Source: Gekko japonicus (lineage: Eukaryota). Taken from it: a stretch of DNA of 64,000 nucleotides. A program made the position numbers and the translations under genes. The notes below the pieces were generated by a model. It was given only the letters and a program-made list of their open reading frames with translations, was not told the origin of the DNA and did no database searches. Shown one piece after another: positions 18,240 through 31,137 of this stretch (the first letter of the stretch is position 1; each line of letters begins with the position of its first letter). The stretch is from positions 875,304 through 939,303 of the forward strand of contig NW_015163102.1 of assembly GCF_001447785.1 (NCBI RefSeq), read 5' to 3'.

Positions 18240-19320
18240 CATGCCCCCCCCCCATCCTCCTCCATTGTTTTCAATGAAGGAAAAGGCACTGGGTTTTGCT
18301 GGGCACTAGTACATTGTGCTGGTACAGCTAGGCACTCTGTACATGCACTGGCTATGCTGGGCTTGAATCCTTCCTTGCTTGGATTTGTTGAGCTGGCATT
18401 GCCAAAGTGGCATTGGTTCTGCTGGGCACTCTGTACATGCACTGACTGTGCTAGGCTTGCAAATCCCCCTTGCTTGGATTTGTTGAGCTGGCACTGCCAC
18501 GTTCTGCATGCCCCCCTTCAGTTTCTATTGCACAGACTCTCTGGTTTGACATCAGTACCTGATTTTTTTGCTGTTTTCCCCTCCATTGGACATAATGGAT
18601 TATTGGGGCACCTTCTTTGGGGGCCTATGGAATTGGACCTCCTGGTCAGTCTAAGATGAGTTAGTGTGAGCTAGCTCACAGTTTTTAGCCTCCAACTCAC
18701 AGATTTTTGTCTTAGCTCATGAAGGATGGCTCCAGAGCAAACTAATTTATGCAGTAGCCAAATCTCTCACTCTTAACTTCAGTGCCAGTAGCTCACAAAG
18801 TAGAATTTTTGCTCACAAGACTCCACTACTTAGAAGGGAGCATTGCCCCAGTCCAATCTTTTTGAAACTTGAGGGGGGTGTCTTTTGAGGGCAACAGAAG
18901 CAATGCTGAAAATTCAGTGCTTCTACCTCAAAAACAGCCTCCCCAGACCCCCACATACCCCCAGATAGATTTCCCACTATAGCCTATGGGGATCATTGAC
19001 TATAATGGTCCCCATAGACTATAACGGAGCTGAAGGCATTTAAAGATATCACAGTCCCTTTAAACGTGTTTGTGAAGCTGCAGCTTCACCTGGAAAAGCA
19101 TTTAAAGGGAGTGCAACCTCTTTAAACACTGTTTAACTGCAGCTATCCTGTTTTCCCAGATAATCCCAAATTGGGGGGGGGATTATCCAGGATTGGCTAT
19201 GCTCGATAACTGAAAATACACCCCCCCCTCTATATCCAGCTGAAAGAATAACCAATAAATAGTAAAAAGGTATTTTCCAGCTATTTTTTCAGCTTGGATA
19301 GAGCCGAATGCACACTCCTA
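18240..19320. mobile_element. Non-autonomous DNA-transposon-like element ending in gccgaatgcacactccta, containing a partial hAT MITE (about 18650-18845)
   Basis: Shares internal blocks (tctacctcaaaa, cattgactataatgg) and its terminus with the element around BovB (about 41700-45105). Left boundary uncertain. Confidence 0.55.
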
Positions 19321-20463: not shown

Positions 20464-20812
20464 AAAATTAACTTAAAAAAAAAAAGTGGGAGTTGTACCA
20501 GATGAGGAAGGAGCATGTATCTTCAAAACAATTAGCTCTCATTGGGAAATCATTAGCTTACTGTTCTGATCCTTTACTTGTTAAGCATAGTCAACTTACC
20601 AAGCAATACCGCTAGCGATCACAATGGGATACTTGGGATTACCTCTTCACCACCACCCAGGGAATGCACTTCACACATTTTAATTGACTTTTGAATGTCC
20701 TAAACAAGAGTAAAATAATTGTCATAAATCTCCATTTGTAATTTGAAGTGAGGGGGATTGGTTCCCCAAACAAAAAGACCTCCTGCTCCAAACACTGAAA
20801 ACATATAGGCCC

Positions 20813-21725: not shown

Positions 21726-22975
21726 TTGAAGTGAGGGGGATTGGTTCCCCAAACAAAAAGACCTCCTGCTCCAAACACTGAAAACATATAGGCCCATAAT
21801 CCCTACAGCCACAGTTATCAGGGAGGCAATCATATACTTGCACCATACAATGGAAGTTTGAGGGACTTTTTACTCTGGTATAGAAGTTTGAGCTTCCTGT
21901 AAGCAAAATTGAACTTAACTCTATGAATGCAGAAAGTTTGTTATTCTTTGTTGCTCATAAAGAAAACTATCATTATTTCAAAACTTTAATGTCTTAAAAA
22001 ATACTCAAAGAGCAAAAGAATAAAGAAACATGACAGGCATTCTGAAACCTTAATTGCTAGTTTATGCTGGTAGAGGGAGGGAAACCAAATTTTAATTAGG
22101 GCTGAGCAAATGTCCCCTGTTACATTTCATTATTGGTCTGTGGGTTGACTCTGCCCTGCATGCCACTCTGCCTGATTTCCAATTTAATTTGTATAATTTT
22201 GACGATTAATTTTGGAATTGGCACATACCCAGTTACTTTAAAGGTTACCAATGTGCACCAGCATGTGTGTGCTCTAACTGAAGCACCTGCAAAAAGGATT
22301 CATCATGCTACTGCACGATAGCACCAAGATTATTTTCTTTCTTTCTTTTTTGCACAATTTTGATCAGTGCATACATGCACTTGTGAGACTAGTAATCTGA
22401 AACGGGAGAAAAGGATACAATAAGGCACTACCTGATGGCGGTCTGAAGGGCCGCATAAGGAGGGAGGGAAAACTTTGCAGGCTTGGAAGGAGAGAGACTG
22501 CTGGCAGAGTTTCCCACCCATACGGGTATCTGGTGATGGGAGGAGCTTACCTAATTCAGCTGTTGTGCCACCTCACATCTGGGCAGTTCTTTTGGAATCA
22601 GCCGGCGAGAAGGATCATCTCTCTGGCACAGTGTTTGTTCAGGCCTAGGAGTCATTGTGATTGGTTTGGAGGATTGGAGTGGTTGAGATAGATCGTTGCG
22701 GGTCTTGGTAGCTTACTTAGGGGAATGGTGGGTGGTATATTTACTGCCCTTCCCACCCACCCCCTTAAGGGGTTTTTCTTCCCCTCCTGCCCCCCCTCTT
22801 TTTCCCCCCTTTCTCTAGTTCTTGCACGAGGAAGACCTCTTAACTCCTTATATCCTTAGTTCTTACATGCCATGAGTTTGCAGGTCGCTCATGGTCGGCA
22901 GCTTTGGGAGCGGGCTGGGCACGGTCATGCAGTTGGGTGTAGGTGCCATTTTGTCACATGCTTTCCTCGTGCAAG

Positions 22976-23595
22976 ATGGCGTCAGGAAAAGGGAAGGGGC
23001 CGGCGAAGGATTTGCAGCAAGCAGCGAAAGCTGCGAAGCCAGTTCGTGAGTCTCATTCCTCTTTGGATGATGAGGAGATGGAGCAGGATTGGCGGCTCAT
23101 TTTGGAGCATTTGGAGGCTTTAGAGAATGCTCACGGGGTTACTGTCACTCGGGGGCAGGTGGAAATCTGTGGTCCCATCAGCGGTCTCGTTCTGCTCAGT
23201 TTAACCAGTCAGTGTTGGCCCATCTTTCAGCTCTAGATGGCTCCTCTTCTATCACTCCCCCCGCAGGGAGTGAGGACGGAGGGCTAGAGCAGGGGGCTGT
23301 GGCAGCAGAGAGATCACCAACCCGGGGTACAACTGGAGAGGGGGTACTGGTTGATGTGGCTGTTGTGGCCACGGACAGTGCAGGTAAGTTGGACTCTTCT
23401 GTTGGGGGAACCGCTTGGCCTTGGGGATGTGGGAACTCAGGTGGGGCTGCCGCGGGTGCATCTGCGGGGGTTCTGGTGGGCAATTTGGCATGTCCCCCTT
23501 GTGGGCTGGGCAATCAATGGGGGTTCAGTCCTCCTGCCAAGGCCGGGCATGGCCTTTGGGGATGGGAGACTGGGGATCGGGACAGCAGCCCTCTT
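22976..23595 (+). pseudogene. YR-retrotransposon ORF1 (gag-like) N-terminal part, frameshifted
   Basis: MASGKGKGPAK...DDEEMEQDWRLILEHLEALENAH, then in the 23089 frame QSVLAHLSALD: basic N-terminus, acidic patch and two short amphipathic or coiled-coil segments. Confidence 0.6.
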
Positions 23596-23599
23596 GGGC

Positions 23600-24130
23600 T
23601 TTTTTTGTTTGTTGGGCTGGTGGGTTTGGGACAGTGCCAGCACTTGCTCCAAGTGTTAGCTGGTGAGCTTGGGGTCCCATTGACTCATGAGAAGACTGAA
23701 GGGCCATCATCCATATTGACCTTTTTGGGTATAGAACAATACTGTCCAGCAGAGATCACGCCTGCCTGAGGCCAAGTAGGGACACCTGAGGTAACAAGTT
23801 GCCAGCTTTTTGGCCAAAAAGAAAGCCTCTCTGTTAGAGTTACAGCAGTTAGTGAGCCATTTGATTTTTGCTTGCCGGGTGGTAGCCCCGGGGAGGGCGT
23901 TTCTGCGCCAGTTTTCTAAGGCCATGTCTGGCTTGAGACAACCACACCACAGAGTCAGGATCCACAAGGGTATGAGGGAGGACTTGTTAGTTTGGCAGAG
24001 CTTTTTAGGCCAGTTCAATGGGGTTTCATTTTGGAGGGAGGACCTCTGCCTGCGGGGTGGCCTGCAGGTGTCCTCTGATGCAACACGTGCCATAGACTTT
24101 GGGGTCTTTTTTCAAGGTCACTGGTGGCAC
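23600..24130 (+). pseudogene. DIRS-type RT C-terminal region and start of RNase H
   Basis: FLFVG...LGVPLTHEKTEGPSSILTFLGIE and ELQQLVSHLIFACRVVAPGRAFLR...DLLVWQSFLGQFNG...SDA...FGVFFQGHW are typical of DIRS/Ngaro pol. The YxDD expected just before FLFVG is absent. Confidence 0.85.
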
Positions 24131-24143
24131 TCGGTCACTGGTT

Positions 24144-24200
24144 GGGCGGTGGCACTCGGCTGCTTGTAAGACATACGTACGGCCTCTATTGGCTCCCTAA
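24144..24200 (+). pseudogene. Tyrosine recombinase C-terminal remnant
   Basis: My translation of 24144-24200 is GRWHSAACKTYVRPLLAP*, matching the GRWxSxAyxxYxR motif that carries the catalytic Tyr. Not in the ORF track. Confidence 0.75.
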
Positions 24201-24244
24201 GGAGGTTTACTGTTTAATGTTATTCGTTGTTGTTGTTTTTAGGT

Positions 24245-24800
24245 TCTTTGGAACCGGCGTGGAGGCTCTGAGTGCTTATTGTGGGGCACAACATGGTTTT
24301 CTGGGCACCCCATTATGCAGCGAGATCCGGAATGGGGGCACAGCTGGGCCTGAGTGACTGCGCCATCATTGAGTGGTTGGGACAACGGGGCCTGCAGTGG
24401 ACTGGACTTATGCTGCTGCTATTCTGTGAGTGGGATAGGCCTCCTCCTGATTCACTTGGGGGGTAATGACCTAGGGATGGTCATGGGGAAGGCGTTGATA
24501 CTGCAGGTGCAGGACGACATGGATGAAATTGTGGCACGGTGGCCCAATATCTCGCTGGTGTGGTCAGCCATTCTCCCCCGCCGGGTGTGGAAGTGGGCAT
24601 GTGACCCGCATGCCATGATGCGGGGTGGGGGCTTTGTGATTCCTCACCCGGGCATTCTACGGGAGTGCACCCATCTCTATCGGGAGGATGTGGTGCCTCT
24701 TTCTGAGCTGGGAAATAGGATACTGTTGGAAAATTTTCGGCAAGGTCTGAGGCAGATTGTCTGCTGGTGTGTGGGGTCAAGGGCCAAAGCAGAGGCTTGA
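24245..24800 (+). pseudogene. SGNH/GDSL hydrolase-like ORF of the YR retrotransposon
   Basis: VLIVGHNMVFWA (block I, Ser replaced by Asn), WLGQRGLQW (block II), LIHLGGNDL (block III), LYREDVVPLS (degenerate DGVH block V); one frameshift near 24445. Confidence 0.8.
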
Positions 24801-26625
24801 CCCTTTTCTGTGGTGGAAATCTGGCTTGTTTCTTCTATTATGGGGAACACCAAGTGACAACCCCCCTTTGTGGGGGGTTGGCACACCACACACAAACCAT
24901 TCCTTGTCATGGACCTCGGATGGGGACTGTGGGTGGGCTGTTAGATGCCTCAGGCCTGGGCCTCCCTTCATGCTTTGCGGTTGAAGGTGGGCTCAAGGTG
25001 GGGTGCTGACATGTCTGCCACCTGGCAAAGGCCTTGTTATGGTTGGCTTGCACCGGGAGCTATGGTGGTTCACCCTTGTTTATTCTGGAGAGGGATCATG
25101 GGATCTTCTGTTGGTCTATGTTGCAGCCCTTGCCAGATACAGTTCTTTCCAGTTAAAGTTAAATAAAGCTGCCCTTAGTTATACCATATACCTGTGTCAG
25201 TCTCTTTCTTCTGACTAAGTCTGCAAAGCGAAAATTGCAGAAAATTGTACATGCTTTTCTTTTTCTTTTCTCTTTTGTCTGCATTTAAATGCCTCCTTTC
25301 TCCCCAGTGGGAGTCCAAAGTAGATCACATCATTCTTCCCTCCTCCATTTTATCCTCACAACAACCCTTTGAGGTAGATTAGGCTGAGTATATGTCACTG
25401 GTCTGAGATCACTCAGCAACCTTCCATGGAGATTTGAACCTGGGTCTCCAAGGTCCTGTCATGCCTGCCCCTGCTGATGTCATGCCTGCCTTTGCTGATG
25501 CCCCTGAACAGGCTCCTGAGGACCCTGAACAGGCTCCTGAGGACAGTACTGCAGCAGAAAGAATGCCAAAACTCAGAAAATAATTCAGGTGGGAAAATTT
25601 TGCAACCATCCCTAACTTGAATTGTACCAAAGAGAAAAACCAGTCTCTCCAGTTACAACTGAATGTGTTTCTTCAATTCAATGTGGCTTGCCAGAAGAGC
25701 AAAAAAATAAAAATAAAATGTCTGTGATGTTAACTTTGACTAGTACTTGGAACTTTCAAAGGCTGAGGTGAAAGATTGACTTAAATGGCAACCGAAACTT
25801 AAATTCTCTTAAGGCACAAATCATGACATTTTAGAATCTATTAAAGCAGGAAGGTACTTAAACCAAAACTGCAGATTTCCCTGCTGTATATTTCAGAGCT
25901 TCTTTTACCTTGTGCACCGCTGTTTTCATCCATCCCACTTGCATGCAGTGTGTGTTTGCATACTAGCTTTAATTAATAGCATGTGACTTGAAGCCAGCTA
26001 ACAGCGCTTACCGTTCATTGATGGTCAGTCACATTGAGCAATAACTTGCGTATGCGAATGAGCCTGCATGTCACAGATTAATTGACACAGACTGAAATGT
26101 CATATTGCCAGATGGCAACTGAAATATACTACAATTACTTATCTGGCGGGGACTATCAAGGGTCGGGTAATCAAGTGCTAATAATGCTCATCATCATCAT
26201 CATCATGCTTAGCATTTAGATCACATATTATCTAATGTTTGAACTGCTTCACGTGCATCTTTTCAGAAATCCTTATAACAGTCCTATAAGTCACACTAGT
26301 ATAATTGTCTTGATATTGCAGAGGCTGAGAGAGAGTAGACTGAAGCTGAGGGAAGAGGGTCAGTGTGGTGTTGAACCTGGGAAAGCTGGGTTCAAACCCC
26401 TACTTTGCCTGAAACTCATGGGGTAAATTTAGGACTGTGTCTCACAGGGTTGTTGTGAGGACAAAATGTGGGAGGAGAAACTCATGTCACTGCCATGAGC
26501 TGCTTAGATAGATGGGTAGCTAGAAAAGTAGTTTGCTTAGGGACACACAGTGTATTTGCGGCTTAGGTGATTTCCTGGGGTTCCCATCTCTGTAACTACA
26601 GGACTATAACATGACCGATTCATCT

Positions 26626-28340: not shown

Positions 28341-29111
28341 CCACAAAAATGATGGCCTCTCTACTTTTGTTCCTGGATTATTTTGCTCATATGGAGACTG
28401 TATTGTTCTGAGCACCTCAAGGTGATCTTGCTGGTACTTGGCCTGCACAGCTCAGTGCACTGCAGAAGTACTATCTTTGCTGCATTCCTAAGTTACCTCC
28501 TTCTTGTAGAGTTGGTGTATCTGGCTCGACATTTGCCAGGAGCTTTCTTGGGGGCAGTAAGAGGTGAGAGGTATGAGGGGGAGTTGGTGTGAGGGAGTGG
28601 TGACATGGTGGACATTTCTTCAGGTTCATGAGGGAGGCACGCATTGAAATGGCTCCTAAAAAGGTCCTTTACTATCTCCCCATGAACATTCATCAACTCA
28701 ATTGCCATGCTGGGTTTTTTGAAAAATGTCTATTCAGGAGTCTTGAATTGCTGATTTCTGTAACTGTCCTCAACTGTCTGAAGTCTCTTTTAACTGTGTT
28801 TTTTACCTCAGAACATTGCGATCCACAGCAGAGGGAGGTGGATGCAAACAGGTAAGTTTTACCTCAGAACTCTGAACTACACAGTTGACCAATCCGGGGG
28901 GGGGGGGGGAACGCCTCAAAAAAAAGCAAGTTCATATGAACCAATTTTCTAGAACCCACATTGTGAGAAGTTAAATAACCTAATAAAGGAAATCACTTTT
29001 CTATAAACTTGCGGTATATTTCCATAGTGGATGGGAGTATGGCTAAAGCCATTGGTAAGGCTGGGCCAGCAGCATCGCTAAGGATTAAAGTACCCTGGCC
29101 CTGCTCCTACA

Positions 29112-29531
29112 CCTGACGGAAACCTGCCTGTCTGATGTTGGGGGGGAGTATATTTAAAGGCATCGGCTAAGGCAATCCTGCTGAGCAAGGCTCCCTGTTG
29201 GCTGTAAATATCCAACCCCCTCTCCTACGCCTGACAGGCAGCTGCCTGTCCAGTGTAGAAGGGGGAGGGAGAGGAGTATTGCAAGCCATTGTGGAGGCTG
29301 GGTTGGCAGGATTTCTAAGGCTGACAGACACCTGCCTGTCTGGTGTTGGGGGGGGGAGTATATTTAAAGGCATTGGCTAAGGCAATCCTGCTGAGCAAGC
29401 CTCCCTGTTGGCTGTAAATATCCAACCCCCTCTCCTATGCCTGACAGGCAGCTGCCTGTCCAGTGTAGAAGGGGGAGGGAGAGGGGTATTGCAAGCCATT
29501 GTGGAGGCTGGGTTGGCAGGATTGCTAAGAT
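29112..29531. repeat. 210-bp tandem duplication inside the Helitron
   Basis: Two near-identical units; the ORF track also shows twin ORFs at 29198 and 29408. Confidence 0.9.
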
Positions 29532-30926
29532 GTTACTGCTGGGGGGGCTCCCAGATGGCTTTAAGCACCCTGCACCTGCTGCTGCGCTTGATGGACAGTT
29601 GCCTGTTTGGTGTAGGAGATGCATGGGGAGCAAGTCTGGGCCAGCAGCGTTTCTGCACCTCACAGGCGGTTGGCCATTTCTGGTTTCCTTAACTGTCATT
29701 AGCTCTCTGCAGTCTCCTGTAACAGGGGGGGGGGGTTTACCTCAGAACACTGAGCTCTGCAGCCAACCAATCAGAGAGTGGGGGGGGTGCAAGGAGGCAG
29801 CAGCCTAGCAGCCACATAGGAAGCAATGGGAGGAGCTCATTTTTACCCCTTTCAACAGGGGTTAAATGTCCAAAAAAATCCCTTCTTAGTGAGCATCTAT
29901 GTCATGGTAGGAGCACTCTCCCCAAATTTTGTTTTTCTAGGTCCAGGGGGTTGGCCTGGGTGTTGATTTTATGGTGAGGGGACTTTCTTTTATATATATA
30001 TAGATAGATGGAAGTGACAGCCCATTGAATCCAAACCACTATTCTCATTAGCTCCCCTTATTAGCAAAATACCTGTGTACATAGGAAAGCCCACTAATCA
30101 GATTAAATAATTAATTCAGCAATCACAAAATAATTAACGAATTACTGAACTCATGAATCATTTTGGCAGATTTTTTCCAAATAATCAGTCTCTCAGTATT
30201 ATTATCAGTCGGTCAAAGTTTATTGTTCTAACTCTCTTTTCCATTCTGAGTGCCTGTTAGGTGTTCTTTCTAAATCAATTCAAGTGCTCTTAGTGGTGTG
30301 GCTGCCAAACATGTCTGTGATAGTGCAAAGTGAAATTTTGCTAATCTCATTTAACTTCCTTCAAAATTCCTTGGATGTTTTGTGTGAGTGGGAACCACAA
30401 ACAATACTTTGGTTGCATGCTACAAATATATGGAAACCCTAACCCCCATGACAATTTGACATATTTCCTGGTTATAAGACAACTCTATATGGGGGGGGGG
30501 ACAACACTACGTCAAGAATTTTAAAAACGCCTTCCAATGGAAGCACATATGATGATGTTTGCGTTGTGCAGAAAGGGCACTTTTCATGCATTCTGGCAGA
30601 TCCATGCAAAAAGAGAATTTATATGTATTTATCGGGGCACAGATCCTCATGGTCATGCACTAGCAGTGGTCTCATGTCCTAGAACAAGGCCAGTGGCTGT
30701 CGAGAGAGATCGGGATTTTTGAATGGTGGGTCTTTTTAGGAAGTTGAGACATCAGACCAAGAAATAAAGCAATTGACTTATGGAACTCATTGCGATAAGT
30801 TGAAGAGGGAGCTGGACAGAGAATCCAGAAAGTTGAATAGCTTTCTCTCTTCCAAGTGGCAAGAATGGAGCTATTATGCCACACACCCATAATCACATCT
30901 TACTATCAGTCCAGAACAGTCACTAC

Positions 30927-31137
30927 CAATGTTCCCTCTAAGCTATGCAGTCTTGTGAGCAAAAATTCTACTATGTGAGCTACTGGCATTAAAGTTGTGA
31001 GTGAGTGATGTGGCTACTGCATAAATTAGTTTGCTCTGGAGCTGTCCTTAGGGAGCTGGACTAAGACAAAAAACTATGAGCCGGAGGCTAAAAAACTGTG
31101 AGCTAGCTCACACTAACTCAGCTTAGAGGGAACAATG
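30927..31137. mobile_element. hAT MITE
   Basis: TIRs caatgttccctctaagct...agcttagagggaacaatg; 8-bp TSD gtcactac at 30919-30926 and 31138-31145. Confidence 0.92.

Follow-up and report, generated by a model that had tools for sequence, protein, structure and literature searches.

In the available text of the papers that mention it, the hydrolase of Ngaro retrotransposons is treated as an extra open reading frame (ORF) whose function is unproven (PMC9210276, PMC6681497, PMC7192593). For instance, the Ngaro-like elements DIRS-53_XT and DIRS-54_XT from Xenopus have the hydrolase as their fourth ORF, described there as one "with no proven function"; splicing is not mentioned in the available part of that account (PMC9210276). 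(The same source gives split direct repeats as a hallmark of Ngaro elements.) Two other types of retroelements are similar in some respects. In LINEs of the ZfL2-1 type, the ORF1 protein combines a helical oligomerization module, a basic peptide, a poorly conserved linker, and an SGNH domain, with no folded RNA-binding domain, and a membrane role has been proposed for the esterase (PDB:4c1b; PMC3905857, in part). In LTR retrotransposons, in retroviruses, and in the bdelloid elements with GDSL ORF3s, a 3' ORF behind pol (ORF3 or env) is made from a spliced message that skips pol (PMC5408684, in part). We found no published description of a splice from ORF1 to SGNH. Six papers mention hydrolases or spliced ORF3s, but not an ORF1-SGNH junction, in their available text (PMC9210276, PMC7192593, PMC6681497, PMC5408684, PMC4157794, and PMC9341512); our search did not extend to Repbase entries, supplements, the first Ngaro paper, or the review by Poulter and Butler, which may bear on the point. 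Splicing across pol and coiled-coil-esterase proteins are each known already; what may be new is their combination in a tyrosine recombinase (YR) element.

We analyzed a stretch of 64,000 nucleotides from Gekko japonicus (the window), which contains a dead copy of a Ngaro-type element (Table 1). Like the Xenopus elements, its relatives encode a gag-like ORF1, reverse transcriptase and RNase H (RT/RH), YR, and then SGNH, and one of them (L159) has split direct repeats. Unlike in the Xenopus account, the hydrolase here would be the second exon of an ORF1 isoform. Also, in the gecko copies, the SGNH ORF does not overlap the YR ORF. In this family, ORF1 keeps a donor in phase 1, and an acceptor in the same phase is kept just past the YR stop. 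We consider it highly probable that the family splices its own RNA between the two to make a fusion of the ORF1 N-terminus and SGNH (ORF1N-SGNH).

Table 1. Features of the Ngaro-type copy in the window (positions within the 64,000 nucleotides).
Feature	Position	Strand	Basis or remark
Ngaro-type YR retrotransposon copy, dead, internally deleted	about 22415..25230	+	ends from blastn vs other copies
Exon 1 coding part: ORF1 N-terminus (basic head, acidic patch, two helices, low-complexity linker)	22976..23383	+	frame broken near 23166
Helix 1 (..LILEHLEALE..), site of relatives' first RhxxhE motif	23081..23137	+	P0004 model helix H36-54, motif counts
Helix 2 (..FNQSVLAHLSALD..), site of relatives' second RhxxhE motif	23194..23244	+	P0004 model helix H72-96, motif counts
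Splice donor CAG/GTAAGT, phase 1, 11 codons upstream of ORF1 W-P-W-G	23381..23389	+	family conservation; homologous site used
Intron of spliced form (rest of ORF1, RT/RH, YR; remnants here)	23384..24242	+	859 nt; near-complete copies 3.1-3.9 kb
RT/RNase H remnant	23601..24126	+	alignment to pol frame of L061-L064, L071
Tyrosine recombinase C-terminal remnant GRWHSAACKTYVRPLLAP, ends in TAA 24198-24200	24140..24200	+	PF00589 on full YR of L159, L174
Branch-point-like TTAAT (A 24217, 26 nt upstream of exon), T-rich tract, and acceptor TAG	24214..24242	+	
Exon 2: SGNH hydrolase, broken	24243..24800	+	PF13472 on open copies; SGNH fold
AATAAA near 3' end, candidate poly(A) signal	25162..25167	+	same place (6998) in L159

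A first-pass annotation of the window had predicted this splice, and its reading of the sites was accurate: the donor ends an exon at 23383, in phase 1 in the frame ...ATDSA-G; the T-rich acceptor (...TTTTTAG/G) begins an exon at 24243, past the YR stop codon and in phase 1 in the SGNH frame; and the SGNH frame has no ATG between the upstream stop and block I. Its claim that ORF1 is joined in frame to SGNH holds for the phase of both sites, but not for the start codon. Exon 1 of this copy (408 nt) is one base shorter near 23166 than in the copies L062 and L063, so the frame of the ORF1 ATG (at 22976) is not the donor frame. Similarly, the annotation described the TGA at 24269-24271 as the single stop, explicable as a decayed CGA. 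That stop is present, and the first two letters at this position in 35 copies (CG in 6, TG in 16, CA in 9, TA in 2, and AG in 2) show a pattern of CpG decay, which fits. But it is not the sole lesion. Besides the break in exon 1, block I (24284-24292) reads G-H-N instead of G-H-S, the SGNH frame shifts near 24449 (just before block III, 24450-24470), a segment is lost near 24606-24613, and block V (24687-24698) reads D-V-V-P instead of D-G-V-H, so that the catalytic histidine is absent. None of the broken frames in the window had a Pfam match under E = 0.05. Relative to L062 and L063, the copy has also lost about 1.35 kb near 23595-23600 and about 1.2 kb near 24126-24139. The predicted skipping of RT/RH and YR would apply to near-complete copies, but the window's intron holds only remnants of them.

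(Elsewhere in the window, the same 70 bases lie on either side of an N gap, at 20743-20812 and 21726-21795, which is probably an assembly overlap. A repeat with a 210-bp period, with internal inverted repeats, occupies 29046-29544; two 180-nt copies are 97% alike. A short and very abundant interspersed repeat is found in opposite orientations at 18643-18837 and 30934-31134, and a similar one interrupts the YR of another copy, at L139:3070-3270.)

The window copy is one of a family of repeats. In the gecko genome G000, at least 50 DNA matches were found for the 3' part of this family and at least 42 for the 5' part. (A protein search for the family gave 5,273 first-look candidates, of which 119 were scored.) Near-complete copies are about 5.5 kb, with ORF1, RT/RH, YR, and SGNH in that order. 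The reverse transcriptase (PF00078) is above the cut-off in copies L159 and L174 and weak in L071, which is from the window's family. The YR (PF00589), whose ORF overlaps the end of pol, is above the cut-off in L159 and L174 and weak in L086. The ORF after the YR matches PF13472. The pol ORFs of 604-607 amino acids had no match to any methylase family. Of 13 copies tested for split direct repeats, one has them (L159, from another subfamily); they were not seen in the window copy or in six other copies of its family, which are old or truncated. There is also a young Ngaro subfamily (L172-L175), whose members are at least 99% identical over the 3' 1.7 kb; L174 has long open frames for pol, YR, and SGNH.

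Taken alone, a single donor motif does not exceed what chance would give: the 64-kb window has 4 occurrences of AGGTAAGT, versus 2.39 expected. What carries the case is the set of family copies, the records from other species, and contigs of RNA type. In the window's family, GT is present in 28 of 30 copies and GTRAG in 25 of 30. (52 loci entered this count and 30 passed the score filter; adding the window and dropping one duplicate left 30 rows.) Of the 4 copies in this family whose exon 1 has no stops, 3 are in phase 1 at the donor. Across subfamilies, 49 loci have a match resembling W-x-W-G. A strong donor in phase 1 was found in 29 of these and a strong donor in another phase in just 1. 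The 29 loci span 11 groups, and their donor is always 11 or 12 codons upstream of W-x-W-G. (By our reading, the matches at the remaining 20 loci are LWxWG from RNase H or are unrelated.) In other subfamilies, nine copies have a frame that stays open between the first codons and the donor, and in all nine the donor is in phase 1. Whereas the residue that follows the donor varies (K, M, T, or R, and E in L159), the GT persists. Of the 29 donors, 26 are G/GT, although GGT accounts for 96 of the 392 upstream glycine codons. These patterns suggest that the nucleotides are under constraint.

We then examined the acceptor. In the window's family, the AG is present in 32 of 35 copies, and the exon start is in phase with block I in 32 of 35. 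(43 loci entered and 35 passed the filter; adding the window and dropping L002, which is 97% identical, left 35 rows.) Branch points have the consensus YTRAY; a site of this form is present in 24 of the 35 copies, with an A at the position of 24217 in 33. Because neighboring columns are also highly conserved within this family, conservation of either site is modest evidence on its own. The gap from the YR stop to the AG ranges from 22 to 56 nt, which implies that it does not serve as coding sequence. When all subfamilies are considered, block I was found in 83 of 90 loci, which form 15 groups at 79% identity. Upstream of block I, 81 of the 83 copies have a pyrimidine-rich AG within 25-60 nt (with a loose cut-off and no shuffled control), and the best such AG is in phase 1 in 75 of 83, versus one third expected. 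All 15 groups have a phase-1 AG either 38 or 41 nt before block I, and the spacers, which cannot be aligned between groups, nevertheless end in YAG in one phase. A caveat is that the copies are related, so these counts are not independent. Overall, both sites and their phase are kept in the window's family and in divergent subfamilies.

The SGNH ORF mostly lacks its own start codon, and the splice likely explains how it is expressed. Instead, it might be made as a separate protein, from an internal promoter, from a non-AUG start, or by re-initiation after the YR stop, with the splice sites being real but secondary. The four ORFs of the Xenopus elements are reported to overlap, at least in the available text (PMC9210276); many window-family copies have a TAATG within the gap; and in 24 of 83 copies, with groups 4 and 5 represented, an in-frame ATG does precede block I. 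However, the other 59 have none, near-identical copies within group 4 differ in whether they have it, and the gap contains an in-frame ATG in just 5 of 35 window-family copies. The longest open frames are those of L158, L159, and L172-L175, where a start codon for SGNH would have told against the first-pass annotation; in none of these copies does an in-frame ATG precede block I. Separate expression would also leave unexplained why there is an in-phase donor 3 kb upstream and why fused proteins are on record. We consider it quite improbable as the main route.

Fused proteins are on record for other species. Searching with an open SGNH frame led to two proteins from Eublepharis, P0004 and P0005, whose first 140 residues resemble ORF1. 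(The counterpart of exon 1 is P0004 residues 1-141; L095 and P0004 are 38% identical, E = 8e-12.) Among 42 other matches to P0004, 17 cover at least 82% of the fusion, and these are from Eublepharis, two species of Anolis, Hemicordylus, Pogona, and Rhineura. Many of the fusions are predicted at several loci and as numbered isoforms, although RefSeq models of this kind can arise without RNA support. Two pairs of models part at the donor: P0025 and P0246 share 49 identical residues up to the donor glycine, and P0005 and P0248 share 44, after which one member continues into SGNH and the other into the K...WPWG of ORF1. Also, P0121 is an uninterrupted fusion on a Logan contig of 1,677 nt. In Anolis sagrei (P0040/P0041) and Hemicordylus (P0048/P0050), fusion isoforms have inserts of 17-32 residues at the junction, which suggests further alternative splice sites.

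A profile search gave 3,574 proteins at E = 0.001 or better. Among the best 150 of these, 13 have the lizard N-terminus, 8 have a piece of YR, 3 have a piece of pol, 21 have a second type of N-terminus, and 96 have nothing that we recognized; 9 of the 150 have several SGNH domains. Bufo, Hyperolius, and Xenopus tropicalis supply the named examples of the second type. We infer that this amphibian type is also an ORF1, and fusions in frogs and newts are likewise only inferred, because the profile for this N-terminus proved circular as evidence (20 of its 21 matches were seeds) and no protein tied it to the ORF1 core. (Six long proteins, P0108, P0109, P0111, P0113, P0116, and P0124, contain 3-6 related SGNH domains, and about 15 others have one SGNH domain at the end of a chain of 800-2,000 amino acids; neither set had a match to pol or YR.)

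For direct evidence of splicing, we have a junction at one copy. L139 is a Ngaro copy from another subfamily that lies inside DUSP12 (the DUSP12 exons of L139 and L140 are 92-100% identical to the gecko protein P0038). A joint between positions 2531 and 5464 of L139 skips 2,934 nt and has CT..AC ends, which is the homologous donor (5465/5464) joined to the homologous acceptor (2531/2530). It is present in contigs from runs X2 (depth 8.2) and X9 (depth 27), which are from two studies, with 27 letters on the shorter side. It is absent from X1 and X18. (X18 is the sole run recorded as RNA, and 3% of it was read, at a depth of about 1-5; X1, X2, and X9 are classed as RNA by the tool's guess, which fits because they contain a DUSP12 intron joint.) So, the junction search that the first-pass annotation had proposed succeeded in two of four runs, at a homologous site: the splice pair is used at the DUSP12 copy, in a host-driven transcript. 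This transcript runs from DUSP12 into ORF1 of the Ngaro copy and then to the SGNH exon (L139:1930-5744, G000:C7384). All four runs contain another joint, which links a DUSP12 exon to a cryptic acceptor within ORF1, and unspliced contigs also span the intron.

The DUSP12-Ngaro chimera is annotated in two gecko genera (P0037 and P0038, which are 77% identical). In both proteins, the SGNH frame is open but the catalytic histidine is absent. The chimera is possibly an old exonization that replaced the C-terminus of DUSP12.

At the young copy L174, the donor-acceptor joint was not found in the four runs, where the depth at the donor bin was only 0 to 1.5. (The runs placed 530, 2, 96, and 31 records on L174, with one joint, which is non-canonical.) Intron-less genomic copies were not found either: among the 233 best-scored of thousands of loci, 0 of the 21 with both exon ends lack the intron. 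Some loci (L139 and L141-L145) had apparent contiguous matches across the exons, but we rejected these as processed copies because the alignments extended spuriously into the end of YR.

A further alternative is that both sites are look-alikes, arising from G-K-S codons and a T-rich spacer, that are used just by host read-through transcripts and by gene predictors. In its favor, the one junction seen directly is in a host-driven transcript, which also uses a cryptic acceptor within ORF1, and the single AGGTAAGT motif has a chance-level frequency. But the GT is kept while the encoded residue changes, the acceptor spacers end in YAG in one phase even where they cannot be aligned, and the same fusion is recorded in distant lizards. 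This idea is largely refuted, and we give it very little chance. The sites, their phase, their conservation, and their use at the DUSP12 copy are observed directly; that the element splices its own RNA between them is likely. The observations of the first-pass annotation are partly confirmed, and its interpretation is supported; as far as its three refuting conditions could be checked, each came out in its favor.

What would the fusion protein be? In AlphaFold models of 24 sequences, a disordered linker joins two helices (residues 36-54 and 72-96) to an alpha/beta domain that is modeled with confidence. (In the P0004 model, the helices have pLDDT of about 66-79.) The fold matches of the alpha/beta domain are to PAF-acetylhydrolase, GDSL lipases, and bacterial GDSL proteins; the ZfL2-1 esterase (4c1b) ranks lower (rank 36, E = 2.3e-5), so the matches show no special kinship to it. 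The motifs GHS and GxND are present in 25 of 25 fusion models and DGxH in 24, so that 24 of 25 have all three blocks. We predict that the SGNH domain is a lipid-cutting enzyme. As for the N-terminus, the first-pass annotation had described a coiled coil in ORF1, but what we find is limited to two short predicted helices with RhxxhE motifs. RhxxhE is a trimerization motif in the ORF1 protein of LINE-1 (PMC5940361, in part). It is present in 24 of 26 N-termini, 16 of which have two, and the total of 40 motifs compares to 0.7 in shuffled sequences (the sequences are related). A trimer prediction for P0004 residues 28-100, which did not use an alignment, gave no clear verdict (score 0.01). The spliced form drops the Cys/His-rich knuckles at the C-terminus of full-length ORF1. 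A sequence search of the PDB gave no match, and the ESM Atlas placed the ORF1 core with unnamed eukaryotic clusters, one of which has zf-CCCH in 10% of its members.

The N-terminus resembles that of the LINE-1 ORF1 protein in its RhxxhE motifs and its positive charge (PMC5940361, in part), but in LINE-1 a long coil is followed by an RRM and a CTD. The overall arrangement of the fusion is like that of ZfL2-1, although ZfL2-1 is encoded by one unspliced LINE ORF and forms an antiparallel dimer of five heptads, while the gecko fusion has two short RhxxhE helices and would be made by a YR element as an alternative product. And since the gecko element has RT/RH and YR, and the fusion needs a splice, this is not an ORF1 of a CR1, L2, or RTEX LINE; at most, it works like ZfL2-1. 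The bdelloid GDSL ORF3s lack coiled-coil or transmembrane parts and are not described as Gag fusions in the available text (PMC5408684), whereas the gecko fusion retains about 136 residues of ORF1. The first-pass annotation had compared the splice to that of retroviral env. This comparison holds in that a 3' product is spliced past pol, as in the host-driven transcript at L139. It fails in that so much of ORF1 is retained and that the product is no fusogen. The product is modeled as a soluble SGNH domain preceded by two helices and a disordered linker, not as a membrane-anchored fusion glycoprotein. Avian retroviral env has short gag leaders.

In the mechanism that we propose, unspliced RNA would serve as the genome and as the message for full-length ORF1, RT/RH, and YR. 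The spliced RNA would encode a protein of roughly 340 residues that retains the basic head and both RhxxhE helices, and in which the esterase replaces the conserved ORF1 core and the Cys/His knuckles. The shared helices might let the fusion assemble with full-length ORF1, so that each particle displays a small number of esterase heads, which would bind membranes or modify them; the splice ratio would then set their number. We propose this co-assembly and membrane activity only tentatively, by analogy with the ZfL2-1 esterase (PMC3905857, in part). A different role for the splice would be regulatory: it could strip RT/RH and YR from most transcripts and so limit transposition, as self-restraint or host control, with the fusion being a by-product or a dominant-negative ORF1. 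The spliced form does lose the catalytic genes for transposition and the ORF1 core while retaining the helices, and such regulation is compatible with the fusion being made for use. But 24 of 25 fusion models, which come from several lizard families, retain the catalytic motifs, and this points to an enzyme that is needed. As the main purpose of the splice, regulation seems unlikely to us, though less so than the other alternatives above.

If the element splices its RNA in this way, then the splice tells us which protein is made from the hydrolase ORF. This makes the question of the hydrolase's role testable, with ORF1N-SGNH in place of the bare ORF as the object of study. More broadly, it is conceivable, though we would not call it probable, that the hydrolase-bearing Ngaro elements of lizards, and probably of amphibians, have a two-isoform Gag switch, in which the ORF1 N-terminus is joined either to the particle core or, through a splice across pol and YR, to a catalytically intact lipid esterase that co-assembles and handles membranes; that they reached the LINE design by a separate route; and that the splice pair was taken over by DUSP12 in two gecko genera. 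The same architecture in LINE ORF1 proteins and in a YR element would support a general role for lipid esterases in the particles of retroelements. Many lizard and frog gene models that are "uncharacterized" or misnamed would be explained as transposon isoforms. And Ngaro copies carry a ready pair of exons that is open to capture by host genes.
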